Shown here piece after piece: positions 35,698 to 60,887 of a stretch of DNA of 64,000 bases. The stretch is from NCBI GenBank assembly GCA_963796105.1, contig CAWCKJ010000004.1, forward strand, positions 320,001-384,000, given 5' to 3'. The stretch is from a candidate division FCPU426 bacterium (lineage in GTDB: Bacteria; Oederibacteriota; Muellerivitia; Muellerivitales; Muellerivitaceae). The position numbers and the translations under genes are program-made. Under the pieces are notes generated by a model. The model had not been told where the DNA came from, searched no databases, and saw only the letters and a program-made list of their open reading frames with translations. Numbering within the stretch: position 1 is the stretch's first letter; every line of letters begins with the position of its first letter.

Positions 35698-38600
35698 TTA
35701 GAACAAAAACTTAACTTTGCAAAAATACTGGTTTCCGGAATAATTGTTCGCTGGAATGTAATTGTCATGGAATTCAAGGTACTTATAACGGAATTCCAAC
35801 TTGGCCCCACCCCAAGGGATGTCATAGGCAAGCCCTAATCCATAATCGTTGGTTCGATAATCCACCTGGGGGTAGGTATATTGTGATTTCCAGGTTTCAA
35901 CTCCGATGTCACCCATCAAATCCACGTTCTTGACCACGTTAATCATGATGGAACCATCGTAGACCAACTGTTCAAAGAGGTTGGAAAAACTGGTGGAAAG
36001 GGTGTAAGGAGCCAAATTGTTGGACAAGGGCGAGTTGTTGTTAACGGGGAGATTTGTAACGGAACTGGAAGCGACACCTGAAACCTGATTATCGGTGATG
36101 AAAAAGAACCCATCCACGGGAGAGGTCAAACCAAGCCATTTATCGATTTTGAGTTTGGCGGTCAAGGTAATGTAGTTGTAGGTTTTGAGGTCGTCAATAT
36201 TGGCATACATATTGTTTCCATTTGCATATTTTGCGGGATCTTGACCCGAGGTGGCAGGAGACAAACTGTATGTTCCGCCGTTGTTATAAATGGGCAAAAT
36301 GAGCGGAATCCTCTCACTGGTCATTCTAAATTGGTAGCGTACATCATCGTTGACAATGTCCGCATCGTTTCTCATGGCTTCGATGTTGTTGATGTAGGTC
36401 TGACGCAGGGGATTCACGTTGGGCGCATAGTTTCCCCAAAGGTCCAACCCCCATAAGCCCTCGTCGTCCGGGTAGTAAAAACTAAGCAATTGGGTGGGTT
36501 CGACCTCGTAATAACCTTCCTGGCCCTGTTCGGCCACATATTCCTTCTTTTGGGACACGTCAAAGTTGATGATAAAGGTATCCAGGAAACTAGGCCAACT
36601 CTTCATCCAGGTCTGTTCCCTGCCGTCCCATCCCAAGTTGACCCGCCAACCGTATCGGTCGGTCTGAAGGTTGTCCACCTCCCCGATGGCCCCATAAACG
36701 TCCTGGAAATCGCTGGGATTGAAATAAAGGCCGTGGTGGAAGAAATTAAATCCGCTCATGGTAGCCTTGCTCATGAAGTCGGCGTAATTCTCACTGAGGC
36801 CGAAGTAATAAAGGGTCAGGGGATAAAAAGCCATGGAGGCCTGACCCGCGGGCGCCTCAACTGCGTTGGAATCATTTTGGAGTTGGCCTGATTGTACATA
36901 GGCGGGGCCGGGATAGACGCTTCCCGTATAAAAATGCGAGAACCCGCCCTCGAAATCAAACAAAACCGGGGCAAGGTTCAAATGGATGTCGGCTGAGTAA
37001 TCTTTCATGTCCAGCTGGGGCATATTGGGCAGGTTGCTGACCCCAAAATTGTCATTTACCCATTCCGCGGAAATCGAGGCCCTTAAAAGACTGCCGAACA
37101 AAGGTTGGTCAATCTTGGCCCCTTCCTCCCAACGAAGGCTTTGGCTGGTTGTTTCGCCCATACGTCCCACCAGGAACCACATCCGACCGCCCGGAGCCAG
37201 CCATGGGACAGTTCTCCCTACCGCGTAAATCCCGTCAAAAACCCGGTCGCTGGTGGATTGAACATTGCCTGCCGTGGGGGAATAACTGGGCACGTAGCTG
37301 ATGTTGCTCATGAAGTCATCCCAGTTCTTCGCGTTTTTATCATCATTGAAGCTCTTGATGTTCCAGGGGTTCTCGAACCGCTTGAGGGAATTGTTGGCAT
37401 AGCCGCGACTAAAATCGCCGTAGGTGGTGTCCGGTTGGTAGGCTTCCACAGCGAAGGTGGTGTCCCATTTACCTAAGTCCCCGTAAAGATCCAAAGTACA
37501 GCTGGGATTACCGATATAAAGGGAAACAGGTCCTGTGCCGTAGACACCCCATAAGTCATAGTTGGCGGATGCGTTGTCATAGGGCAAGATTCCGCCTACT
37601 CCGAGGGAAAGGGCTCCCTTCCCCCCCAGGTCCGAGTACATCCCGCACCAGATTTCCTCCAAAGCCTTTGAGACGCTCTCGGTGGCGATACCAGAAACGT
37701 TTAAGTTTTCAAACCGAGTGTTGATATTCGTGTTGAAATTCGGGATGCCCGCCGACCTATCCGCCTTTTTCCAAATAGCGTCCACTTCGTCCTGAACCGT
37801 TTTGAGGTTATCTAACTCGTCTTCCTGGGCTTTAATCCGGGGATCATCCAAGCTTAGCCGCGAGCGAAGAAAAACAGTTTCCAAATGAAGTTGTTTCAAA
37901 AGGTCCTCTATTTCCTTCCTTAAGGCGCCAGTAGCTTCCGGGAGGTTTACTGCGGGTGTGGGATTCGGGGTGACTATAGGCGAGGCGACAGGAGTAATGA
38001 CCGGAGAAGGAGCCGATGGGGTCGCGAGAGTTGGCGCAGGGGTGTTCGCGGGCAAAGGCAAAGAAGGTTCTGGTAAAGGCGGAGCGGTCAGGGGCGTATT
38101 TTCAGGCAAAGGAAGCGCTGGCGCAGGAAGTTCCGGAGCCGGCTGAACTGGAGCAGGGGTGTTCGCAGGCAACGGCAAAGAAGATTCTGGTAAAGGTGGG
38201 GCGGCAAGCGGTGCCTCCGGCATTGGCAAAGAAGGCTCAGGTAAAGGCGGGGCTGCCAATGGCGTGTTTTCCGGAAGTGGAAGCGCGGACGGGGGAAGTT
38301 CCGGAACCGATTGAACAGGCGCGGGCGTAACCGCAGGCAACGGCAGGGAAGACTCCGGTAAAGCCGGCGCGGCCAGAGGAGCATTTTCCGGCAAAGGCGG
38401 AGCGGCCAGGGGCGTATTCACCGATAGAGGAAGAGCCGGCGCTGGTTGTGTTGAAGCAGGCAATTCCGGAGCGGAATTGAGGGGCGGCAATTGGACAGGA
38501 GTTTCCAAAGGGGATGGCACGGGAGTTAACGGGGTCGGACTCGGCAACGCTAATTCAGGAGCTTCAATCTTAGCGGCGGCCTTCTCAGTGTAAAAAGCCA

Positions 38601-38822: not shown

Positions 38823-38882
38823 TCCTGAAATCATTCTAACTTTTAAAACCTTTCCTGAAATCATTCTAACTTTTAAAACCTT
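38823..38882. repeat. Perfect 30-bp tandem duplication
   Basis: TCCTGAAATCATTCTAACTTTTAAAACCTT twice. Confidence 0.95.
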
Positions 38883-40034: not shown

Positions 40035-43000
40035 TTATGGCGTATCCAATTTCTTCACGGCGGTCCCTAATGGCAACCCCTTGACGTAAACAAAATCAAA
40101 AACCCGCAGGGGATCTCCCTGCTTTTCGACCATGACCGCGGCCATGTAGCGGTTGTCCCTCTCCGGATGGGGCTCGCGCGGCATATTCAAGAAAAGGCTT
40201 TTCACTTTTACCATATTCCCCGCGGGAAGCTCAAACGGCCCCAGGGTCGCCAGCTCATCCAGGTAATTTTTCGAGGTGTCTATCTGGTGGAGAACCACCC
40301 CTTTCAAGTCCTCGGGCGAATGGTTGCGGATTTCCACGCTTAACGGAACCGGCACCCCAACGGAAGCTTCCTTGGGGGCGGTGACAGTCACGTCAATGGG
40401 TAATAGCCCTTCGGCTTGTTGTAACGTCGTAAAGGCTTTTCCTCCCGCAATGGTCCATTCCATGGTGGTGTAAGGACCCCGGATTCCCCAAACCAACCGG
40501 TAAAGGTCGTGCCAAAACATTCCTAGATTGGCGTTCTCCGGAAACCAGTTCTGGAAAGTCTCGTTTTCGCGGTTATAAAGTTCCAGCGGGCCGGGAGGTT
40601 CAAGGGTTTTCTGGACCCAATTGAAGTCCACCATCTCTCCCATGGCGTACATGCCGTTTTCCCTGGATAAATAAACAGGCCAATGCCGTTTCATGGCCTC
40701 AATATGTTCTCTCGTCCCCTCGTAGAGCATGATATGGTTAAAGGCCACCCCAGCGTCAATGAACATGGCTGGATCTTGGCCGTGTTGATGTCCCATTTCC
40801 CATCCCAAGGTGAACGTGAACACCGGCTTGGTAACCTTTGCCTCATCCAAGATGCTTTTCAGGGCCAGCGACACCTTGTGGGCCCTCCACCACTCGAACA
40901 AAGCCACCACCTGGGGATTTTCCTTTAATTCCACGGTCCTGGCCAGCCAGTGAATCCGATCTTGCTTTGACATAGACCAAAAATCCATGGGGCCAGGGAC
41001 GTTCAAATCCCTGACGAACTCATCCACCATCTCATACCCGGCAAAACCTGTCCTGACATAATCCAAACCTATGATATCAACCAGGGGTTCCTGATCCATT
41101 TTCCTTAGGAAATCGATGATATCCTTGCGGCGTTTTTTATCATCCAGGGAGATGAACCTAGTCTGGATGACCTCGTCGCTGTCCGGATCGTATCCCAGCG
41201 AGAAGTCGTAAGGCGCTTGCTTCCAAGCGTCGCCTTCCACTTTAAAGGTGGTCATGTACCCAGCGAACTGCAGGCCTTTCGCGTGGGCGGCCCTCGCGTA
41301 ACGGCGGCCCGTTTCCATTTCGAGGCGGTTGTAAGGAAAATCCGCCTGCACGAAATGATCCCAAATGGAGGTTTGTCCCATCAAGTCGCAGTATAAATTT
41401 GCCCCCATGAATTTCGCCCAATCAATGGCGTTGGAGGTGCTGGAGGATCCGTTTCCATCCAAAGGCGGCACGGCGCCGTTTACCAATTGCTTCCCCCCCT
41501 CCATCGTAAGCGCGGCATAGCCGGGATAAAGCCCGTGGGGTTTCAAGTGCGCGATGGTAAACGCGGATTCAAAAGTCCGGGGAACCTTCCATTGCGGGGA
41601 AGTAATGATCACCTCGGCGATGTAAGTTCCCGCCTTGGGGTTGTAGGGAATCGGCCAATTGCCGAGAAGCTTCTTCCCCTCCTGATCCTTCCTTAAATAC
41701 AACTTGGACCTGCCATCCACCATGTTAACCGGCTCCCCGTCGCGGAACACCTCCACGGATGCGTGGATATCGGAGAAATAAGTCGAATCCTTTGGATTAA
41801 CCCTCACCTCAAAAGGCACCATTTCGTAGCGAAAAAAAGTGCGAGTGGGCATAACGGCGATGGCGTCTGGAATCATCTGGGAAACAGAGGGTGCTTGGAG
41901 GACGTTCTTGGCCCTGGAGGGGGAAAGGGTGGCCTTGGCCCAGTAGGCGCCAACACTTAATAAAAGAACAATTAAAACAGCCCAGCCGATCAGGGATCGC
42001 TCAACAAAAGCCTGGTAAATCCCTTTCCAGGATTCCCAACGCGGTGCCGGCCGCAGCAAGGGCAAAAACTCGGGGGAAGGCCATTCCAAATTCGGCTTCT
42101 GGGTGTTTTCAGGAACATCAACAATATCTTTCTCATGGCTCTCCTCATGGCCGATCCCAGCCCTGGAAAGTGGCGTTGAAACCCTCCCCGAAGCCAATGG
42201 GCTGGGGATCTCATCGGCCATTTCCGGATTGAGTTGAATGGCATTTTCCTCCTCCCATTCTTCCTGGAATGGGGTTTCAACCCATTCCGTTAGGACCCGT
42301 TTCGTTTCTGAATAGGCTTCTTCCAAATCCTTTGTTTTTTTCTCTGCCGGGAAAGAATGGGCCTTATCTATTGCTGGAGACTTCCTTGAAAAATAACTCT
42401 TGCGCCACTGGTTCATATTCCAAATCAAACCAACGATCGATCGAAACAGGAACGGGAATGATGAGAAAAACCATCGAACTGCTATCAGGGAATAACGGAA
42501 GAGGAAACTAAGACCCGTCAGGATTTTTTTAACCGCCCAGGGAATAAACGAAAAAAACGGCCAAATCCAATCCTTCCCTTTTCCCGAAAGCTTTTCCAGG
42601 ATCAAACCCACACGCGGCAAATATTTTCCAGCCTCCTTAATCACACTTTTAATATTGAGAACGGTGGGCTCGGTCTTTGGCAAGCGGAAAGGCTCCAGGT
42701 TTTTCGGGGATAAAGTGCTGATATCCCCAAGCGGGACTGATTTTTCCCGGGTGAGCCTCACCACCGTTTCCACGTGGTAGGTCTGGGGGAACATGTCCAG
42801 CGGCTGCGCCCAGTCCGCCCTGTAGCCGTGTTTGGTCAAAAGGGAAAGGTCCCGGGCCAGGGTGGAAGGGTCGCAGGAAACATAGACCAATCTTTCGGGA
42901 TGGAAAGCCGTCAAATGCGCCAGAAACTCCGGCAGGACTCCCTTGCGGGGAGGATCCATGATCACAGCGTCCAGTTGCGTCATTCCCTTATCCCGCAAGC

Positions 43001-44177
43001 CCGTCAGGACCCGGCCGACGTCGCCTTCCAGGAAATCCAGGTTGTCCCGCTGATTCAATTGCGCGTTGAATTTCGCGTCCTCGACCGCGGGAGCTGATTC
43101 TTCGATGCCGACCACGTAGTCCGCTTTGTTGGATACAGCCAGGGCTAGGGTCCCAATCCCGCAATAGAGGTCCAGGAGCATCTCCCATTTCTTCTTATGC
43201 TCCGGGTCGCCGAGCGCCTCCCTGACCACGGTATGGAGGATATCCGCCTGGGGTGTGTTCACCTGGAGGAAGGACATCAGGGACACCCTCAGTCTGAGAT
43301 CGTCGATCACCTCGAAACAGTGGTCCCTTCCGGCCAAGAGGCGCGTCGTGGTCCCGAAAACGGAATTGGTCCGGGAGGGATTGATGTTTTGAAGCACGCC
43401 CACCAATCCCGGGACTTCCTCCAAAAGCTCCGCCGAGATCCTGGGGAGGATTCGGTCCAAGGTTTCTAAGATCAGGGCCGGCTTTTGAAGGCGCTCCTCG
43501 GGGGTTTCCGAGCGGGTGATGAAGGACAACAGCATTTCCCCTGTTTTTACCCCGTGCCGGACGGCCAAGTGCCTCAGGAAACCCGTGTGTTTCTTCTCCT
43601 GGTACGGCGTCAAACCTGAGCGGTCGATTTTCCTTAGGACTTTTTGGATCAAGTCGTTGACGGGATCCCCCTGGATGGGGCAGGTCTGGTAAGGAACGAG
43701 GTGATGGGAACGGGGTTCGTAAATTCCCGAGACAAAATGTCCTTCCCGCATCGAGAGAACCGGAAGGGCCTTGTTGCGGTAAGCGTAGGGGCTGGGCGAG
43801 GGTAGGCAGGGCTGAACCAGGACGTTTGAAAGGTGGCCGATTCTTTGGAAGGCGTCCACAACAAATTGGCGCTTGGCTTGGAGCTGACGGGAATATTGCA
43901 GGTGCTGCCATTGGCATCCCCCGCACTCCTCGAATACGGAACAGGCTGGAACCACGCGGTCCGGTGATCTTTTCAGGAAGTTAAGAATCTCCCCCGTGGC
44001 GTAATGATCCTTTACTTGGTTGATCTTTACGGCCACCCTCTCGCCGGGAAGGCCGCCCGGGACAAATACGGCAAAATCACGGTAACGCCCTACTGAATCC
44101 CCCCCGAAGGCGAGGGAGTGGATGTCGATCTCGATGATGTCGCCGTGGTGTACGGGTTTGACGAATTTGGTTTCCAT
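40035..44177 (-). CDS. rlmD: 23S rRNA m5U methyltransferase (RlmD/TrmA family) fused through a TM helix to an extracytoplasmic GH-like domain
   Basis: TRAM domain, C-x5-CGGC 4Fe-4S motif, LDLYCGIG, DPPRKG, YVSCDPSTLARD, DMFPQTYHVE. Then ~900 extra aa including a TM helix (LIGWAVLIVLLLSVGAYW) and IIGLDYVR. Confidence 0.85.
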   Translation of the reverse strand: METKFVKPVHHGDIIEIDIHSLAFGGDSVGRYRDFAVFVPGGLPGERVAVKINQVKDHYATGEILNFLKRSPDRVVPACSVFEECGGCQWQHLQYSRQLQAKRQFVVDAFQRIGHLSNVLVQPCLPSPSPYAYRNKALPVLSMREGHFVSGIYEPRSHHLVPYQTCPIQGDPVNDLIQKVLRKIDRSGLTPYQEKKHTGFLRHLAVRHGVKTGEMLLSFITRSETPEERLQKPALILETLDRILPRISAELLEEVPGLVGVLQNINPSRTNSVFGTTTRLLAGRDHCFEVIDDLRLRVSLMSFLQVNTPQADILHTVVREALGDPEHKKKWEMLLDLYCGIGTLALAVSNKADYVVGIEESAPAVEDAKFNAQLNQRDNLDFLEGDVGRVLTGLRDKGMTQLDAVIMDPPRKGVLPEFLAHLTAFHPERLVYVSCDPSTLARDLSLLTKHGYRADWAQPLDMFPQTYHVETVVRLTREKSVPLGDISTLSPKNLEPFRLPKTEPTVLNIKSVIKEAGKYLPRVGLILEKLSGKGKDWIWPFFSFIPWAVKKILTGLSFLFRYSLIAVRWFFSSFPFLFRSIVGLIWNMNQWRKSYFSRKSPAIDKAHSFPAEKKTKDLEEAYSETKRVLTEWVETPFQEEWEEENAIQLNPEMADEIPSPLASGRVSTPLSRAGIGHEESHEKDIVDVPENTQKPNLEWPSPEFLPLLRPAPRWESWKGIYQAFVERSLIGWAVLIVLLLSVGAYWAKATLSPSRAKNVLQAPSVSQMIPDAIAVMPTRTFFRYEMVPFEVRVNPKDSTYFSDIHASVEVFRDGEPVNMVDGRSKLYLRKDQEGKKLLGNWPIPYNPKAGTYIAEVIITSPQWKVPRTFESAFTIAHLKPHGLYPGYAALTMEGGKQLVNGAVPPLDGNGSSSTSNAIDWAKFMGANLYCDLMGQTSIWDHFVQADFPYNRLEMETGRRYARAAHAKGLQFAGYMTTFKVEGDAWKQAPYDFSLGYDPDSDEVIQTRFISLDDKKRRKDIIDFLRKMDQEPLVDIIGLDYVRTGFAGYEMVDEFVRDLNVPGPMDFWSMSKQDRIHWLARTVELKENPQVVALFEWWRAHKVSLALKSILDEAKVTKPVFTFTLGWEMGHQHGQDPAMFIDAGVAFNHIMLYEGTREHIEAMKRHWPVYLSRENGMYAMGEMVDFNWVQKTLEPPGPLELYNRENETFQNWFPENANLGMFWHDLYRLVWGIRGPYTTMEWTIAGGKAFTTLQQAEGLLPIDVTVTAPKEASVGVPVPLSVEIRNHSPEDLKGVVLHQIDTSKNYLDELATLGPFELPAGNMVKVKSLFLNMPREPHPERDNRYMAAVMVEKQGDPLRVFDFVYVKGLPLGTAVKKLDTP

Positions 44178-49740: not shown

Positions 49741-50253
49741 TTAGTTGAACCTTTGGATGTAACCCAGTTGGAAAACGGGGACCACTTGGTTCGTCAGCAA
49801 GACGGCGTCAAGTTCCGCCGCGAGGCCTCCCCAATTGACGTCCATGCCGGCGCCCCCATAATAAAAACCCAGGCCTTTGATCACCGAACCGAGGGAAATA
49901 ATCGTGCTGATAGCCCCTCCCAAATTCAGGTAGCCACCCACCAGGGATAGATTGGCGGAAAAACTTTTCGTGTCAGTTAATTTTTTTGACAGGTCGAGTT
50001 GTACGCTTTCCATCCCCGCCGACGAAAACCCGTTCAGCTTGAAACCATAATCCTTCAAATAATATCCCCCCACCAGGTTGAAGAATGGCGGGATATCCCC
50101 GACCGTCAGTCCCAAAACGGGGTATTCCCCTGAATAAGCTGATGGGTTCGAATCAGCGGCTCCGGCCGCAAGGGGAAAAAGGAGTGTCAAACAAAAGCCC
50201 ATCGAAAACACCAAAGCCTGGCAAAACCGATAGATCATCTTAAATTTCCTCAT
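49741..50253 (-). CDS. Hypothetical secreted protein, possibly a small beta-barrel
   Basis: Signal peptide (AAGA-AD), GGAGG RBS, amphipathic strands, ends QLGYIQRFN. Confidence 0.55.
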   Translation of the reverse strand: MRKFKMIYRFCQALVFSMGFCLTLLFPLAAGAADSNPSAYSGEYPVLGLTVGDIPPFFNLVGGYYLKDYGFKLNGFSSAGMESVQLDLSKKLTDTKSFSANLSLVGGYLNLGGAISTIISLGSVIKGLGFYYGGAGMDVNWGGLAAELDAVLLTNQVVPVFQLGYIQRFN

Positions 50254-50498
50254 ATCCCAACCTCCACTCGCATAGGTACAGCGATTTATATTTCAGCCGA
50301 TCTGGAAAAAGTGTCCACCCATCCCGGACTATCCCACAACCCGGTTATTTTATCTTTAAGGGTTGTTCGGCCATTCCTGTTTCGGGGGTCTTTTTGGTCG
50401 GCCGTTTTCCCGCAGGGGTGAAAGTGTTTGAGGAAATTAAGAAAAACTTGAACCTGAAGCTGGCCCATTTCGACCGCCATTCCAACAGGAACCCCAGA

Positions 50499-50737
50499 AT
50501 CTACTACTAGGTTCCCCGGACTTGCTACTAGGAACCGTCAAAACTACTACTAGGAATCCGGAACCTGCTACTAGCTACCGCCGGATCTGCTACTAGGAAC
50601 GCCGAAACCTGCTACTAGGTACCCCGGAACCTGCGGGCAGGGCTCCCGACACCTGCGGGCAGGGTTCTCGGCACCTGCAGGCAGGGCTCATGGACCTGCG
50701 GGCAGGGTTACCGGCACCTGCGGGCAGGACTCCCGGA
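50499..50737. repeat. Array A: eleven 21-22-bp units with a CCT-N6-AGG-type core
   Basis: Six units with an ACCTGCTACTAGG-like core, then five with ACCTGCGGGCAGG, each followed by 8-9 variable nt. A 19-bp duplication follows at 50739-50776. Confidence 0.9.
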
Positions 50738-50837
50738 AAGTTCTCGGGTTCCCGGCTAGTTCTCGGGTTCCTGGCCAGTTTTCTTGGTAAACCATTGGCT
50801 TCTGTTCTTCATCTATATCAAATGCTCCAAGCTCAAA

Positions 50838-50855
50838 CGCCGCTGTTCAGCGGCG
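50838..50855 (-). terminator. Hairpin/terminator after usp
   Basis: CGCCGCTG-aa-CAGCGGCG followed by TTT. Confidence 0.55.
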
Positions 50856-50859
50856 GTGA

Positions 50860-51288
50860 TTATTTCCCCTTCACGCGGACCACCAGGACTGGGATGGAGG
50901 TTTTGTGCCGAACTTCCGCGATGGTGCTCCCGTGGAACAGGTCGCCGAGGAAACGGTGCCCGTGTCCCGCCATGGCGATGAGGTCGAACTTCCCGCCCTC
51001 GGCCGTCTTGAGGATTTCCTGCGGGGGATTGCCCAGCGCCAGCTCCACCGTCACGAAGAGTCCCTGTGCCCTCAAGTCCCCGGCTTTTTTCTCCAGGTAT
51101 TCCCTGTCCACGACCATTTCCTCCGATTCGGCGAGCTTGAGGGTGTCGAAATTGCGCGCGACCCAGCCGTCGGCCACGTGCAGGAGGCGCAGTTCCGAGC
51201 CGTATTTTTTAGCCAATTCAACGGCGTGCGGAAGGATAGTCTCGTCCGCCGGGCCGTTCTCCAGCGCCACCAGGATTTTTTTGTACAT
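50860..51288 (-). CDS. Universal stress protein
   Basis: MYKKILVAL, LLHVA, GNPPQEI, DLIAMAGHGH, GST...PVLVV. Confidence 0.93.
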   Translation of the reverse strand: MYKKILVALENGPADETILPHAVELAKKYGSELRLLHVADGWVARNFDTLKLAESEEMVVDREYLEKKAGDLRAQGLFVTVELALGNPPQEILKTAEGGKFDLIAMAGHGHRFLGDLFHGSTIAEVRHKTSIPVLVVRVKGK

Positions 51289-53711: not shown

Positions 53712-56700
53712 CTAAAACCCAAAGTCCACCCCGCCCGTCAGGTTCTGCCCGGAATAATTCGTCATTCCCGCCTTGCCCTGGTAGGAGACATAGGCCTTGA
53801 AGTCCCTGCCGAACTTGGCGTCCAACCCGGCGGCCAGGACCAAGGCGTCGGTTCCCAGGGCCGGTCCTTCCACGGTAAAATTTCCCCCGCCTTCCATCGC
53901 CGCGCTCAAGCTGTCCAAGTTTCCCTGGTAAACATGCTCCCAGGCCGCGCTCAAGCTTGGCGCCAACACCACGCCTCCCGCGGCCCAGTCCCGGCTGACC
54001 CTCATCCCCAAGTCGCTTAGGAGACAGCCCGCCCCTTGCGACGGGTAGCTTAACGGCGTCTGGGATCCCGTCTCATTGAAGCCGTTGATATCCACCCTGG
54101 TGTACTGGGCCGACAGGAAAGGACCCACCTTGGCTTTCCCCAGGGTCCAATCCCACCCCGCTCCGGCTTGGCCCGAGTATTGATAACCCTGGGCTCTTCC
54201 CGACGCCGTCCCCCCGAAGGAATCGCGCTGGGTGGCGTAACTGTTGATGCCGCCAAAGGCCAGCGCCTCGGCGTGGAGCGCTCCCCCTTTCCAACCGCCA
54301 TAGAGGCCAAATTGTCCGCCCGTCACATTCACCATTCCTGTGGACTGGCTGGTTCCCGACTGAGTGTAGCCCAGCATCAACCCGACCGCCCATTCTTTCG
54401 AGAAGTGGTAGTCCAACCCCGCCACCATCCCGCCGGTGGAATACTGGTATCCCTGAGCGTTTGAGTCGCCCGTGACAGTCCCGAAGTCGCCCATCCCGTC
54501 CATGAAAACACCCAAGCGCTGGGGCTGGAGGTCCTCGGCGATTGCCTCTTCCCTCGCGGCCGAGTGCCTGCCGGCGAAAAGGGGCCCTTCCCCGTTCCAG
54601 GAGATGTTTTTGGATTCTCCCCCGGCGCCCCCGAACAACTGGTCCAGCCTTTGATCCACCATTTCCGCCTCGACCTGGGAAGAGCTGAAACTGATCCGGT
54701 ACATCGGCGTCAAGACCGCCGGTGAGATCTGGGCGTAAACCCCCAGCAAATCGGAATCGGAGAGGGTGTTCAAGTACTGGATCATGGCGGGATCGGAAAA
54801 TTTTTCGTTCAAGACATCCAACGCTCCGCCGATGGCGGCCTGGTTGGGCGTCACCCCCAGGGACCGGAAGGTCGGACCAGTCACTTGCAGGAGGATGTCC
54901 GTCGGCTGGTAAATGAGCGTCACCGAATCGGCCGTGACCATGTTCGTAATCGTGTTGAAAGTCCCTTCCACGCTTCCAGCCGTAAGGATCTCGAAATCCT
55001 CGGTCCCGTGGATATGGAGATGGTACCCGTTTTCCGATACCAGGCTCAGGGTCCCTGCCAGGCTGGCCGCGCCCGAGACCTCCAGCACGTCCCAGGCTCC
55101 CGCGTCGATTCCGCCCATCCCCATTTGCAGTGTCCCCGGCGCGGACTGGGTATAATCGCCACCGATATTGAGCGTCATGGGGCCGTTGAGGCTCAGGGTC
55201 CCGCCGTTCACCACCACGGAGCCGGTACCAAGAGCATGGCTGTTAGCCGCCACTAAGGTTCCCCCGATCAGGTCGGTTCCGCCCGTGTATGTATTTACTT
55301 CTGTCAGCGTCACCGCCCCGTTTCCCGCGATATCCAAGCCGCCGAAACCTTCGAGGATGCCCGCCAGGGACGAGCCGTTGCCATTCGTATCGAAAGTATC
55401 GGACCCGTTGAGGAACACTGTGTTCGTGACAGGCAGGCTGCTCGCCCCGGACCGCAGGGTCGTGCCGTCTTCCAAGACCAGGCTCCCCGTTCCCAAGGCG
55501 CTGTTGTTCCCCAGGCTCAAGGTCCCAGCCACCAAAGTCGTCCCGCCGCTGTAGCTGTTGGCGCCCGCGAGGGTCAAGATGCCCGCGCTGATCTTCGTCA
55601 AGGAACCAGTGCCGCTCAAGACCCCGGATAGGGACAAGCCATCGCCGTTCGTATCGAAAGTATCGGACCCATTGAGGGAGACCGCGTTCGTAACCGCCAA
55701 GCCGTCGGTCCCGGCCTGCAGGGTCGTTGCGCTATGAAGGACCAGGTTCCCCGTGCCCAGGGCGCTGTTGTTTCCCAGGTTCAAAGTCCCAGCCTCCAAG
55801 GTCGTCCCGCCGCTGTAAGTGTTGGTGCCAGACAGGGTCAGGGGCCCTCCTCCCGCGACGTCCAGGCCTTCATTGCCAGCGATCACGCCGCTGAATGAAC
55901 CTTGTTGGACCCTCAGACTCGCGGCCAAGCCTCCCATGGTGATAAAACCAGCCCCCTCCAAGTCCCCGACCACCGCGTCGGCGCTCCCAGTCAATCCGTT
56001 GCTGACAGCCCCGGTTCCCCCGGTGCCCGCTACCATGCTGAGGGCGCTTCCCGCCCCCAGGGTCAAACCCGACGCAGTCAGGGAAACAATTCCCCCATTG
56101 CCGCCATTATAGGTATCACTGTTTCCGCCAATTCCGCCCGCCAGAACCAAGCTGGAGGAGTCCCCCAAGGTCAAGACGGTTCCGATTGACACACCAGCGC
56201 TGCCCCCGTTACCGCCGTTTCCAATGCTCCCGCCTCCCGCGCTGCTGCCATTGCCGCCTGTGCCTCCTATCACGCTGACGGCGCTGGAATCCACAGACAC
56301 CGACCCATTCACTGCCAGGAAAGCCGACCCCCCAGCGCCGCCTGTTCCAGCGGCATACCAGCCATAGCTGTTTCCGCCGTTTCCGCCCGCTACAATCAGA
56401 CCGGAGGAACTTTTATCCGCCGTCACCACCAATCCAGTTCCTATAGAAGCTAAGGCGTTGCCCCCGTTCCCGGCGTTGTTCCCGTAGCTATCGGCTCCCG
56501 TTCCGCCAGCCACGTTGAGGAGGCTGGAATCTAGCGATACCGCGCCGTCCACGGCCAGGGATGCCCAGCCGCCCGACCCTCCTGTTCCCTTGGACCCGCT
56601 GTTGACCCATGGATAATCGGTCTGAGCGCTTCCGCCTGCGACGATGATGTTGGAGCCGTCAAGGACCGACAAATCCGACCCGGTGGTAACCCAAGCGTTG

Positions 56701-58424
56701 CCCCCGTTGTCGCCGTCACCCTGGGCGGAAAACTTGCCAAGGCCTCCCCCCACGCTCACCAGGCTGGAATCAACCGAAACCGCTCCCGAGACCCACAAGT
56801 CCGCGTCGCCGCCCGCCCCGCTGTTACCCTGGAAGTTTCCCCCGCTCTTCCCGCCCGCCACGGTGAATGCAGCCGCGTAATTATTCCCTGTCACATTCAA
56901 ATCCGACCCAATGGAAACCAACGCGTCACCGCCGTTACCGCCATTCGCGTAATAGCTGTAACCGCCGGCCCCACCGGACACGTTTACAGCCTCGGAGTCA
57001 TCCGACACCGCGCCGGTGACCGAAAGATCGGCGGTACCCCCGTTCCCACCGCCCCCCTGGTAATAATCGGTTCCGCCGCCCCCCCCCGCCACGCTCACTT
57101 GGGCAGCTTCAGCGCTGGATGCCGCGGACAGGCTGCCCAAGAAAACCGAGGCACCGCCGCCGTTCCCCCCAGCGGCGCCCTCCAAGGCGTAACCGTAGCC
57201 GGCGTCTCCCCCCGTAACGGCCAGGAAGCTTGTGTCCATCGACACCGCACCGGAGACGGACAAAACCGCGGAACCCGCCGCTCCCCCCGCGCCATGGCCG
57301 TTTAGCCAAATGTTGCTTCCCGAATTCCCCCCGGCCACGTAAAGCCCCGAGAAAGTGTAGCTGTCCACAAGGATCAAACCGGAACCCAGGGAAACCGACG
57401 CGTTCCCCCCGTTCCCTCCGTCTCCCCCGTGGCTGGAGCCTCCCGTTCCCCCTCCAACGCTTACCAGGCCTGAGTCAACCGTTAACGGGCCTCCAGTCAT
57501 CAGGGCCGCCGAACCGCCGCTCCCTCCGACGCCTCCCGCGCTGTCCCCGCCGGTCCCTCCCGTAAGGTTCAAACCGGTGTAATAGACCGACACGGGACCC
57601 GAGGAAGTGAAAATCGCATCGCCACCCGCCCCGCCGTTGCCGGAGGTTCCAGAAGCCGTTCCGCCGTTGCCGCCCGCGACTTGGTATGTTGAGAGACCCC
57701 CTGTATCCCCCGCAAGAATTAAGGATCCGACGTTTACGGTGGCCGCGCCGCCCGCGCCGTCATCTCCCCCGCTGTTGTCGGCCCCGGTTCCCCCCGCGAC
57801 GGTCAGGGTGCTGGGGTCCGCCGACATGGAACCTGTGACGCTCAAGTCCGCCGAGCCGCCCGCCCCTCCATTGGGGGCCCCGGACCCGCCCTCAAGCGCC
57901 AGGGTCGAGTTGGAAAGACTCAGGCTGTTGGAGGACAAGGAAACCGGATTGCCTGAGGCCGCGGAACCGTTGAATTGAACCGTGCCGACCGGGGACGAAA
58001 CATCGCCGGTACCGGTTAAATTTCCGTCAACCACCTGGACCCCGCTAATGGCCAGGGAAACACCCGCACTGTTGAAAACCTGGTATGAGTTTCCGCCATT
58101 GATCACGACACTCGCTCCGGAGTTGGTAAAGGTCACACTTTGGGTCAATGTCGGAAGGTCCGAGGACAGGATGATGGTTTGACCGGAAAGGCTTGAAAGA
58201 TCAATGGTGCCGCCGCAGGGGGCGTTGGCGTTGATTTGGTTGATGGCGTCGCCCAGTGAACCGGGACTATTGTCGCCTTCGTTGGAAGTGACGGTCACGT
58301 TTAATGGGACGCAAGGGGTGGCCCAGGTCGGCATGGTCGAGGTGAACAGGCAAAGACCCCAAAAGAAGAGGACCAATCCGGTAAAAAAAAGCCGTGCGCC
58401 GTTGGTGTGGAACCGGTATTTCAT
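53712..58424 (-). CDS. Autotransporter with Gly-rich passenger and PATR repeats
   Basis: Likely start MKYRFHT at 58424 (GGAGG RBS); many GGxGG repeats; LTLSGTNTYSGGTT repeats; C-terminal barrel ending GVDFGF. Confidence 0.9.
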   Translation of the reverse strand: MKYRFHTNGARLFFTGLVLFFWGLCLFTSTMPTWATPCVPLNVTVTSNEGDNSPGSLGDAINQINANAPCGGTIDLSSLSGQTIILSSDLPTLTQSVTFTNSGASVVINGGNSYQVFNSAGVSLAISGVQVVDGNLTGTGDVSSPVGTVQFNGSAASGNPVSLSSNSLSLSNSTLALEGGSGAPNGGAGGSADLSVTGSMSADPSTLTVAGGTGADNSGGDDGAGGAATVNVGSLILAGDTGGLSTYQVAGGNGGTASGTSGNGGAGGDAIFTSSGPVSVYYTGLNLTGGTGGDSAGGVGGSGGSAALMTGGPLTVDSGLVSVGGGTGGSSHGGDGGNGGNASVSLGSGLILVDSYTFSGLYVAGGNSGSNIWLNGHGAGGAAGSAVLSVSGAVSMDTSFLAVTGGDAGYGYALEGAAGGNGGGASVFLGSLSAASSAEAAQVSVAGGGGGTDYYQGGGGNGGTADLSVTGAVSDDSEAVNVSGGAGGYSYYANGGNGGDALVSIGSDLNVTGNNYAAAFTVAGGKSGGNFQGNSGAGGDADLWVSGAVSVDSSLVSVGGGLGKFSAQGDGDNGGNAWVTTGSDLSVLDGSNIIVAGGSAQTDYPWVNSGSKGTGGSGGWASLAVDGAVSLDSSLLNVAGGTGADSYGNNAGNGGNALASIGTGLVVTADKSSSGLIVAGGNGGNSYGWYAAGTGGAGGSAFLAVNGSVSVDSSAVSVIGGTGGNGSSAGGGSIGNGGNGGSAGVSIGTVLTLGDSSSLVLAGGIGGNSDTYNGGNGGIVSLTASGLTLGAGSALSMVAGTGGTGAVSNGLTGSADAVVGDLEGAGFITMGGLAASLRVQQGSFSGVIAGNEGLDVAGGGPLTLSGTNTYSGGTTLEAGTLNLGNNSALGTGNLVLHSATTLQAGTDGLAVTNAVSLNGSDTFDTNGDGLSLSGVLSGTGSLTKISAGILTLAGANSYSGGTTLVAGTLSLGNNSALGTGSLVLEDGTTLRSGASSLPVTNTVFLNGSDTFDTNGNGSSLAGILEGFGGLDIAGNGAVTLTEVNTYTGGTDLIGGTLVAANSHALGTGSVVVNGGTLSLNGPMTLNIGGDYTQSAPGTLQMGMGGIDAGAWDVLEVSGAASLAGTLSLVSENGYHLHIHGTEDFEILTAGSVEGTFNTITNMVTADSVTLIYQPTDILLQVTGPTFRSLGVTPNQAAIGGALDVLNEKFSDPAMIQYLNTLSDSDLLGVYAQISPAVLTPMYRISFSSSQVEAEMVDQRLDQLFGGAGGESKNISWNGEGPLFAGRHSAAREEAIAEDLQPQRLGVFMDGMGDFGTVTGDSNAQGYQYSTGGMVAGLDYHFSKEWAVGLMLGYTQSGTSQSTGMVNVTGGQFGLYGGWKGGALHAEALAFGGINSYATQRDSFGGTASGRAQGYQYSGQAGAGWDWTLGKAKVGPFLSAQYTRVDINGFNETGSQTPLSYPSQGAGCLLSDLGMRVSRDWAAGGVVLAPSLSAAWEHVYQGNLDSLSAAMEGGGNFTVEGPALGTDALVLAAGLDAKFGRDFKAYVSYQGKAGMTNYSGQNLTGGVDFGF

Positions 58425-58663: not shown

Positions 58664-59462
58664 TACAGCAACTAGGTACCCCCAAACCTGCAACCAGGCA
58701 CCCTGGTTCTGCTACTAGGTACCGCCAATTCTTCTACTAGGTTCGCTTATGCCCACTGGGCCCACCGGCGTCCGCGGGCAGGGCCTACCGGACCTGCGGG
58801 CAGGGCTACCGACACCTGCGGGCAGGATTGCCGAAAATGTGGGCGTGTTATCCTCCCATGACGGTAGGTGACCACGTCCAGGCCGACGGTGGCTCCCGAC
58901 CTCATGAATACAGGGCCCCCAAACCGTGCCTACAGGGCTTCCGGCCCAGCTATACGGAACTGGGTCATCGGCTTACCGAATACTGGGTTGTACTGGGTTG
59001 GGGCTTCCAATACTGGGTTACGGGTTTTCCAAATACTGGGTTGTACTGGGTTGGGGCCTCCAATACTGGGTTGCGGGTTTTCCGAATACTGGGTTGTACT
59101 GGGTTGGGGCCTCCAATACTGGGTTGCGGGTTTTCCAAATACTGGGTTGTACTGGGTTGGGGCTTCCAATACTGGGTTGCGGGTTTTCCGAATACTGGGT
59201 TGTACTGGGTTGGGGCCTCCAATACTGGGTTGCGGGTTTTCCGAATACTGGGTTGTACTGGGTTGGGGCCTCCAATACTGGGTTGCGTGTTTCCAAATAC
59301 TAGGTTGTACTGGGTTGGGACCTCCAATACTGGGTACGGCGGAAAACCCGTCCACGTACGGCGGGAACCCGACCCCAGATGGCGGGAAACCCCGTCCCCT
59401 GCGGGCATGACCACCAGCGTCTGTGGGCAGGGCCACCAGTACCTGCGGGCAGGACTTTCGGC
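58664..59462. repeat. Array B: composite ~22-bp-period repeat region related to array A
   Basis: CTACTAGG-type units at 58664-58742; CCTGCGGGCAGG-type units at 58770-58826 and 59397-59462; further 22-bp units (GTACGGCGG...) at 59334-59396. Confidence 0.85.
58976..59335. repeat. 53-bp tandem repeat, ~6.8 copies
   Basis: Consensus CC(G/A)AATACTGGGTTGTACTGGGTTGGGGC(C/T)TCCAATACTGGGTTGCGGGTTTT; unit starts 58976, 59029, 59082, 59135, 59188, 59241, 59293. Confidence 0.97.
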
Positions 59463-59522: not shown

Positions 59523-59555
59523 AAAAAAGCCCGGGAGGAAATCCCCCGGGCTTTT
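59523..59555. terminator. Intrinsic (bidirectional-looking) terminator
   Basis: AAAAAAGCCCGGG-loop-CCCGGGCTTTT downstream of the Sel1-OmpA gene. Confidence 0.85.
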
Positions 59556-59582: not shown

Positions 59583-60887
59583 TTATAGGCCCTCGACCGT
59601 GATCTCGACCCTGCGGTTCTGAGCCATGTTTTTCTCGTTGTCGTTCGGGGCCACCGGGGACTTGCGGCCATGACCCTGGATATCAAAGAGCGAGTTTTTC
59701 GCCCCATGGTAAAGCAGGAATTCCTGGACCGTCGCGGCCCGGCGCTCGGATAGGGCCTTGTTGAAATCATCCGTCCCCCGGATGTCGCAATAACCGTCGA
59801 TCTTTACCTTGATATTCTTGTTCCAGGTCAGGAACTCCCCAAGGGTCCTGAGGTATTGCAGGTCGGAGGGGCTTAAATCCGATTTCCGGTAGTCAAAATG
59901 GATGATTCCCTTTTTCTTGACCACCACTTTCGGGTCCAGGCCGTTCTCCAGGTTGATGCGGCCCATGCTGTCCCTGGAATCGGTGTTCCCGCAGTTGGCT
60001 CCCTGCAGGTACCACTTAAGGGCCTGCTTCTCGTCCTTGTCGGTCCCCTCGCCCGTGTGGTACATGAACCCCAGGTTGTTGGCGGCGTTGGCGTTACCCT
60101 CCACCGCGGCCTTCTCGTAGCACTCCCGGGCTTTTTGGTCGTTCTTCACCACTCCCAAGCCGTGCTGGTAGAGCCAGCCCATGTCGTTTTGCGCGTCCGC
60201 CTCCCCCAATTCCAGAGCCCTTTTGTAATGACTCAAGGATGTCGCGTAGTTCTTCGTGACGCCCCAGCCCTCCTGGTAGGCCTTCCCCAGGGCCTCTTCC
60301 GCCGCCGCGTCGTTTTTCGGAGCCGCTTGCTTGAACCATTTCACGGCCTCATTGTAATTATGGGGAACGCCATATCCCATCTCGTAAACCATGCCGATAT
60401 TGCGAAGGGCCGTAATGAAACCATTGTCCGCCGATTTGTGGTACCAGCTTAAGGCTTGGGCGTAATCGGTTTTCATCCCCCAGCCGTGCGCGTTCAGCTC
60501 CCCCAGGACGTTTTGGGCCTCGGCATCATTGCCATCAGCGGCCTTTTTCAATTGCTCGATGAAATCCGCCTGGTCCGCCAGGACGATCAAGTGGCTCCAG
60601 CCCCGGTTGTTCCCCTTATCGGCGGCCCGGCTGAAATACTTGCTTCCCAGCAGGGTGTTTTTATCCACGCCCAGGCCCTTCGACAGGACCCATCCCGAAT
60701 AATCCAGAAGTTTCGGGTCGCCCGTCTTGAGCGCCCTGGCAATCAAGGCCTTCGCCTGAGGCTTGGTGATATGGTTGAATGCTTCCAACCCGTCCCCCGA
60801 TTCCTGGATGGAGCCGGACGCGAAGCCCGCCGCTGCCGCGAGGATAAGCCCGGCCCAAAGGGCCGGGTTGATGTTTTTCTTTTTCAT
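59583..60887 (-). CDS. Secreted Sel1-repeat protein with C-terminal OmpA-like peptidoglycan-binding domain
   Basis: Signal peptide; AQNVLG..A.GWG..DY.QA..WY.KSA-type repeats; IHFDY...DGYCD.RG...N.ALSERRA...NRRVE. Confidence 0.92.
   Translation of the reverse strand: MKKKNINPALWAGLILAAAAGFASGSIQESGDGLEAFNHITKPQAKALIARALKTGDPKLLDYSGWVLSKGLGVDKNTLLGSKYFSRAADKGNNRGWSHLIVLADQADFIEQLKKAADGNDAEAQNVLGELNAHGWGMKTDYAQALSWYHKSADNGFITALRNIGMVYEMGYGVPHNYNEAVKWFKQAAPKNDAAAEEALGKAYQEGWGVTKNYATSLSHYKRALELGEADAQNDMGWLYQHGLGVVKNDQKARECYEKAAVEGNANAANNLGFMYHTGEGTDKDEKQALKWYLQGANCGNTDSRDSMGRINLENGLDPKVVVKKKGIIHFDYRKSDLSPSDLQYLRTLGEFLTWNKNIKVKIDGYCDIRGTDDFNKALSERRAATVQEFLLYHGAKNSLFDIQGHGRKSPVAPNDNEKNMAQNRRVEITVEGL

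Follow-up and report, generated by a model that had tools for sequence, protein, structure and literature searches.

The window analyzed here, a 64,000-nucleotide stretch of DNA from a candidate division FCPU426 bacterium, contains two arrays (A and B) of a genome-wide family of phased direct repeats, and what is new about this family is the polarity of its arrays and its partner gene, here called X. With moderate confidence, and judging from sequence comparison and structure models, we regard the arrays as likely multi-site binding arrays for X, a predicted membrane-anchored protein that would tether the DNA and control the adjacent promoter. The arrays are taken as likely X binding sites because an array lies directly upstream of X in six genera of one family. 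No description of the X–array pair was found in the openly accessible full-text literature.

Array A, with 12 units, and the initial 280 bp of array B, with 13, follow one 21/22-bp frame in which the central triplet changes, with slips of 19 and 24 in the unit-by-unit parse of the two arrays (Table 1). The same two cores recur in the same order and orientation, as the original prediction had stated: CTACTAGG is located at 50504-50612 in array A and at 58712/58734 in array B, and GCGGGCAGG at 50633-50720 in array A and at 58774-58818 and 59445 in array B. The lag-22 autocorrelation compared with 500 shuffles yields z of 10.4 for array A (50495-50790) and 9.1 for the whole array B. The claim that the ~22-bp period is kept through array B holds for three segments outside the long block (z of 6.8, 4.2 and 7.0, 500 shuffles), but the TACTGGGTT block itself follows a 53-bp period. 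In the middle of array B (58838-58978), 104-108 bp show 93-94% identity with arrays on contigs C6 and C3. The head strand of array A is the plus strand, which is the lagging strand there according to the replichore assignment.

Table 1. Arrays A and B of the window and the features next to them.
Feature	Position	Strand	Description
Array A	50480..50740	+	12 units at 21/22 bp: 1 CAA, 6 TAC, 5 GGG/AGG heads
19-bp repeat tail, GTTCTCGGGTT type	50731..50780	+	beside other arrays too
Array B block 1	58667..58772	+	AAC/TAC heads and one CAC-TGGG unit
Array B block 2	58773..58837	+	3 GGG-CAGG units
Array B mixed single units	58838..58978	+	GGG-CGTG, CGG-TAGG, CGA-CGGT, ATA-CAGG, CTA-CAGG, AAC-TGGG
Array B TACTGGGTT block	58979..59335	+	53-bp higher-order repeat (10+20+23), 6.8 copies, 96% matches
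Array B end	59334..59462	+	GTACGGCGG/GATGGCGGG units, then 3 GGG-CA(G/T)G units; lag-22 z 7.0
170-aa protein gene	49741..50253	-	signal-like N-terminus; starts ~230-250 bp from array A 5' end
Universal stress protein gene (uspA)	50860..51288	-	ends 3' of array A
Autotransporter gene	53712..58424	-	Pfam PF03797/PF12951; starts 240 bp from array B 5' end
Intrinsic-terminator-like hairpin	59525..59555	-	after Sel1/OmpA gene
Sel1-repeat/OmpA gene	59583..60887	-	ends 3' of array B

Both arrays were predicted to end about 240 bp upstream of a gene for a surface or secreted protein, and both indeed end at about that distance upstream of a gene on the minus strand whose N-terminus is signal-like. The autotransporter gene at array B, and the exported-looking 170-aa protein at array A (no match in Pfam or NCBIfam), occupy the same position relative to the array as X does at its own loci. 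Genome-wide, a specific link between arrays and genes for surface or secreted proteins was not borne out, as signal-like N-termini, scored by a crude N-terminus test, were found in 12/33 array neighbours vs. 358/1601 (22%) genes (p=0.058). The homologue of the autotransporter gene in the congener genome G001 has no array, but its other neighbours differ too, hence this is no true empty site. Of the terminators proposed upstream of both arrays, the one at array B corresponds to a terminator-like hairpin, while the hairpin at array A (50838-50858) has a T run solely on the plus strand, whereas the uspA gene upstream runs in the opposite direction. None of the four flanks has another copy in the genome except for the 19-bp repeat tail, and shared terminal modules or inverted ends of the MITE type are absent, so that a non-autonomous element with defined ends is not supported. 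Rfam gives no matches in the window.

Neither X nor an X remnant is found within 2.5 kb of either array; A and B are solo copies. Still, several heads of the window (TGCTACTAG, GAACTGGGT, GCCGACGG and TGTGGGC) are also found in X-proximal arrays. In particular, TGCTACTAG from block 1 of array B is the head of an array directly upstream of an X gene in G001 (locus L189), this being the only genome of the two where it is X-proximal, as no TGCTACTAG array lies beside X in G000, the genome of the window. The TGCGGGCAG and TGCCTACAG heads occur in none of the X-proximal arrays examined. Elsewhere in the window, a minus-strand ORF of 1380 aa (40035-44177) combines an N-terminal RNA methyltransferase of the RlmD/TrmA type with a long membrane and periplasmic region without Pfam matches, and TRF reports a perfect 30-bp duplication (38823-38882) and a 168-bp repeat in 1.8 copies (38057-38363).

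Array B had been described as the second copy of its family; it is in fact one of about 50. In the 4.98-Mb genome G000, an unbiased scan at lags 21/22 identified 59 stretches, mostly intergenic arrays; searching for head patterns yielded 42 loci after merging, and the count rose to 50 when a profile was scanned against a shuffled null. Sixteen head families align as the 11-bp xTGY-NNN-YRGG, behind which comes a degenerate ~10-bp tail; units alternate between 21 and 22 bp, with mean periods of 20.6-22.0. The triplets defining the blocks are GGG, TAC, TCC, CGG, CAG, CGA, CAC, CAA, AAC and others. Within every head family the heads are conserved and the tails vary, all tails being degenerate versions of a single consensus. 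Two species with a median protein identity of about 84% share the same heads. What looked like motif drift is, as read from the sequence, a mosaic of head blocks.

The proposal that the period is conserved more than the sequence is supported by the census, since all 16 head families share one frame and other genera use new triplets in it; at 3/4 inspected orthologous sites in the congener the heads differ and the polarity is kept. Growth by local duplication also agrees with the higher-order repeats of 43, 53 and 65 bp. The specific G000 motifs are genus-restricted (2/31 genomes), but the generalised head pattern reaches other genera (4/99 genomes), with new-triplet arrays in two of them. Arrays are present in genome G011, where X has no match. 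No array was found in two metagenome scans, and arrays are not significantly associated with synteny breakpoints (12/19 vs. 17/40, p 0.17).

Several candidates were rejected in the course of the census. Guide arrays of the CRISPR or TIGR type and Rfam RNAs do not agree with tails that are degenerate variants of one consensus and with zero Rfam matches. A three-unit GGG pattern matched 17 loci in wider genome contigs, the eight inspected being unrelated near-perfect short repeats, and the 18 loci from a viral scan are palindromic origin-like or simple repeats outside the family. A KOPS-like role is disfavoured, since GGGCAGGG is unskewed outside arrays (157 vs. 151). The PINSR of Prevotella (PMC4755523) is a different, 188-bp repeat. 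A separate group of GGAACC/GGAACT-rich arrays has a 65-bp higher-order period (3 x 21.7; G000 C4:150988-151861, C2:368300-369086 and C12:331464-331838); two X copies carrying the helix KKGRLSYL have such arrays upstream, and the family as a whole is unpolarised (5/14).

The X family was flagged by clustering of genes adjacent to arrays. In G000, all six X copies are directly preceded by a repeat array, two of these being of the GGAACC-rich 65-bp type; three copies are short and one is broken. Both arrays of genome G031 also lie directly upstream of X-family genes. A profile built from nine N-domains matched 19/99 genomes of the phylum, with up to 15 places per genome, and 41 places under E 1e-20 were regarded as strong homologues, of which 35, from nine genomes and six genera, were scored. 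Every one of the 35 has a phased array within 700 bp upstream with the head strand antisense to the gene, and the same is true for 29/29 after removal of the seed proteins, compared with 2/29 distant homologues and 24/600 random G000 genes. Among the six unscored places, five have an array directly upstream and one has it 1.5 kb away. This linkage backs the suggestion that the arrays form a dispersed structural or regulatory family.

The strong and distant homologues also differ in the CTPase domain: ParB_N was matched (E<=0.01) in none of the 35 strong X proteins, most of which begin at the DNA-binding domain, and in 24 of the 28 distant ones scanned, one of the 29 having been dropped beforehand. 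An exception that contradicts this split is a ParB_N-like gene with a weak X-domain match in G000 (C4:1322953-1323705), which has an AAC-TGGG array 229 bp upstream and is a possible intermediate between the CTPase-bearing and CTPase-less forms. At E<=1e-10 the family is small, with 78 clusters in a set of 1.84 billion representatives; the sources annotate its members as hypothetical. No conserved neighbour cluster was seen among 144 ORFs near 38 X loci (flanks of 1.5-3 kb, compared without a Pfam scan). Many orphan ParB_N-HTH proteins of the phylum, several per genome, have predicted transmembrane helices and some have TPR (L198-L255). Genes that we take to be ORF6N-like end beside arrays or X genes (G000 C12:11738-12277, C12:176529-177134 and C4:428700; L220, L229). 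A promoter-like motif TGACxxAAATCATA recurs in X leaders (L195, L209, L213, L214 and G000 C2:127539), and in some of them the nearest head overlaps the -35 hexamer.

The X N-domain is predicted to have the DNA-binding fold of the ParB/Noc type, with moderate scores (Z under 8). Its AlphaFold model (pLDDT 85.7) consists of helices only and includes an HTH; Foldseek ranks Spo0J, ParB and Noc first (probability >=0.98, E 0.1-0.25), and the top VIA rows are the ParB DNA-binding domain 6s6h (Z 7.5, rmsd 3.9, 102 residues), KorB (6.8) and Spo0J (6.7). Moreover, hhalign gives 94.5% to the segment behind ParB_N in protein P0004. By sequence, X matches nothing in PDB under E 0.68, and the best ESM Atlas value, 0.89, is a lead only. 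A hydrophobic helix was found by hydropathy in 28/35 strong X proteins. The full-length model (pLDDT 68.7) contains a linker modelled as disordered, a long helix coinciding with the hydrophobic stretch, and a C-terminal half that is folded and for which Foldseek lists HtrA-type PDZ and PH domains along with weak Pfam rows. Thus, as modelled, X is predicted to have one transmembrane helix with PH-like and PDZ domains outside. ToxR and CadC have a cytoplasmic DNA-binding domain, one transmembrane helix and a periplasmic sensor, and ToxR binds tandem direct repeats; the modelled X has the same architecture. Their domains are, however, OmpR-type winged HTH domains with short operators, whereas X has a predicted ParB fold and 4-40 sites spread across about 50 loci.

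Each X copy has its own array head, and the correspondence between helix and head is suggestive. Across 37 pairs, similarity in helix residues 40-47 follows that of head bases one to three once the rest of the domain is removed (partial Mantel r 0.19, p 0.001; this being one of four subsets examined). The remaining domain shows no such tracking (r 0.07, p 0.11), and the first anchoring of this test gave r 0.10, p 0.017. The central triplet, that is, the drifting part, shows no tracking (r 0.04, p 0.21). For all nine head bases the helix and the rest of the domain are equally good predictors (0.10 and 0.11, respectively), and the recognition helix does not stand out in a sliding window. All seven TGC heads are associated with S[QH][IL]/GRI and all three TTC heads with SQV, a post hoc observation with four anchors corrected by hand; when the tree is built from the remaining domain, the TGC rows do not form a single clade. 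The identical helix LKLSDSQITDLL is paired with the same TGTGGGC head in both species. As gene and array are linked, such matches are inflated by co-descent.

The arrays are oriented relative to replication, with replichores set by dnaA at C4:859 kb and by switches of gene strand and skew there and on C3. The head strand is the lagging strand at 36/42 G000 loci (p 3e-6), at 43/50 with the added loci, including one re-oriented from the profile scan, and at 29/31 after merging within 60 kb. In the congener G001, where the leading strand was voted from orthologues, the figure is 26/30 (33 stretches minus one without an array and two without a vote). No polarity is seen in IS families or other small repeats (26/50, 13/30, 20/32, 5/14 and 23/60), in contrast to the TIRYT element (11/12). 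Selection acting generally on the orientation of repeats (PMC9297083) is disfavoured, since long IS repeats are unpolarised. Heads outside arrays have no strand skew.

Gene orientation follows a similar pattern. Where a gene lies within 700 bp of the array's 5' end (34 arrays), it points away in 29 cases, as X does, and the replichore rule fits this set equally well (29/34), with three discordant cases each way. At all distances the replichore rule fits 44/51 arrays and the gene rule 39/51. The excess of polarity over the 73.5% leading-strand gene bias is modest (p 0.005-0.05), and promoter geometry may contribute to the polarity alongside the fork.

If X binds the arrays, each paralogue would read its own 11-bp head with its helix-turn-helix. 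Since X without a CTP clamp would be unable to spread, many sites two turns apart would substitute for spreading, lining up many copies on one face of the DNA, the face able to meet the membrane. Bound X would hold the locus at the inner membrane and repress or activate the adjacent promoter. The arrays would grow by slippage and swap blocks by ectopic copying, producing the apparent drift. As there are about 50 arrays and six X genes in G000, solo arrays such as A and B would be served by X in trans. More speculatively, we suggest as a tentative extension, clearly less probable than binding itself, a new chromosome–membrane tethering system, in which a ParB would have given up its CTP clamp and acquired a membrane anchor together with a periplasmic PDZ sensor, spreading would have been replaced by two-turn-phased, replication-polar arrays, and paralogues with a diversified helix–head code would pin the chromosome or chosen promoters upon envelope signals via some 50 mosaic arrays.

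Binding of X to the arrays would make them a natural experiment within the ParB family, with loss of the CTPase alongside gain of phased tandem sites, so that the role of CTP-driven spreading would become directly testable. It would also provide a way for an integral membrane protein to attach bacterial chromosomes to the envelope, an idea long discussed with few molecules known, and about 40 natural helix–site pairs for reading the specificity of the ParB fold.

By analogy, X would work most like Noc and StbA/stbS. Noc of Bacillus subtilis (PMC8429893) undergoes CTPase-dependent spreading from single 16-bp NBS sites and has an amphipathic helix. It resembles X in the ParB-type DNA-binding domain (predicted for X), the dispersed chromosomal sites and the bridging of DNA to the membrane, which for X is conjectural. 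In contrast to Noc, X shows no match to ParB_N; it is predicted to have an integral helix with PH-like and PDZ domains, and it has many paralogues with differing heads in tandem direct repeats two turns apart. Thus X shares with ParABS/Noc the HTH domain of the ParB type, as modelled, but lacks the CTPase (0/35), and its linked sites are 11-bp direct tandem heads rather than 16-bp palindromic parS/NBS sites; on these two features it falls outside the ParB/Noc class. StbA of plasmid R388 (bioRxiv 10.1101/2022.04.29.490116) is a soluble PadR-like protein recognizing 9-bp repeats at 11 bp (stbS/stbDR), found also in promoters of other genes. StbA has no NTPase partner, and for X none was seen as a conserved neighbour in flanks of 1.5-3 kb. 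Both are HTH proteins, as predicted for X, and have helically phased direct repeats in their own promoters, in the case of X at 35/35 loci, as well as ahead of other genes, although X is ParB-like, predicted to be membrane-bound, chromosomal rather than plasmid-borne, and multi-copy, with 11-bp heads at 21/22 bp.

The arrays themselves are neither REP/BIME nor MITE. Tandem REP arrays and BIMEs with RAYT (PMC3116915, PMC3333891) and TIRtrons (PMC3733652) are, like the arrays studied here, dispersed intergenic mosaics and IS targets, with replichore-opposed orientation reported for SBW25. In contrast to REP, BIME and REPIN, the X-linked units are direct repeats without stem-loops or inverted doublets, and their partner is a predicted DNA-binding membrane protein rather than a nuclease. 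BrickBuilt, a minisatellite-MITE of Porphyromonas gingivalis (PMC4596501), has an intergenic tandem unit of similar size (23 nt, ~19 loci), but with one unit sequence and a shared leader, tail and inverted ends, compared to at least 16 heads and no shared ends here.

The best surviving alternative, to which we assign a real if minor likelihood, is that the arrays began as operators of X cassettes and that the solo ones are left-over neutral minisatellites, which after loss or replacement of X have been expanding, exchanging blocks and collecting IS. It would explain why about 50 arrays coexist with six X genes, several of them truncated, and why only 4 of about 30 G001 loci are at a site shared with G000. 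The polarity could also be obtained in this way from the 29/34 neighbouring genes pointing away combined with the 73.5% leading-strand bias. Moreover, IS21 (13/28), IS3 (6/11) and TIRYT-type Y1 (8/13) genes are enriched within 1.2 kb of arrays, compared with 5% of all genes. The IS21 and IS3 copies inside arrays carry target duplications of 5-7 and 3 bp, respectively, in no fixed phase, so the arrays are older than these copies and single arrays tolerate disruption. Neutral decay, however, would not give conserved heads with variable tails and the same heads in two species, and the solo arrays have no X remnants; both observations argue against this alternative.

It is improbable that the arrays are selfish fork-coupled repeats spread on lagging-strand ssDNA by an HUH transposase of the TIRYT/RAYT type, similarly to tandem REP/BIME, with X as a mere neighbour. 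The array polarity (43/50 and 26/30), the contrast between unpolarised IS or other repeats and the polarised TIRYT element, and five TIR ends abutting arrays are consistent with it, as are the replichore-opposed tandem REP arrays in P. fluorescens SBW25 reported in PMC3116915. Yet no REP-like stem was seen and no ssDNA or RNA folding signal was detected on the ten strands tested (fold z from -2.1 to +0.5, all above -2.2). Y1 genes are present in 22/31 genomes of the family, but 379 kb around 20 Y1 sites in other genera contained one weak array, and G001 has many arrays but three Y1 genes. This explanation also leaves aside the 35/35 linkage to X and the helix–head match. Genes for reverse transcriptases and Y2 transposases gave no match in G000, the control for the latter likewise having none.

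A role in replication, with iteron-like or priming arrays acting as secondary origins or primase starts on the lagging template, is highly improbable, despite the iteron-resembling architecture and the polarity. YAG, present in many heads, is the complement of CTG/CTA, the start triplets of DnaG; the heads, however, show no strand skew outside arrays, no initiator, integrase or ParA was found among the X neighbours in the 1.5-3 kb flanks examined, and dnaA is located at one place. Finally, low-complexity coding sequence or an assembly artefact is hardly credible, although open frames of 125-215 aa span array B on both strands: the 21/22-bp alternation of units breaks reading frames, there is no Pfam match, and the same array family is found in the independent genome G001 and in other genera.

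G000 has 14 matches to TIRYT-type Y1 genes of about 310-320 aa (e.g. C3:193553-194567 and C11:133279-134318), many of them between GGGGTCAGG inverted ends; the one scanned has an NF047646 match and a DnaA_C-like tail. Among these elements, 11 of the 12 counted loci are on the leading strand, and five ends abut arrays, on one side only. A 280-bp segment of mixed AT/GC content (90-98% identical) follows three arrays and is partly found at other sites (G000 C3:734531, C3:745050, C4:1265874 and C12:177270). At L085:9250-9400 and G000 C4:260490, arrays begin immediately after a sequence resembling a tRNA end, which comes after a gene of serine-recombinase type, as judged by similarity, and the heads differ between the two species.
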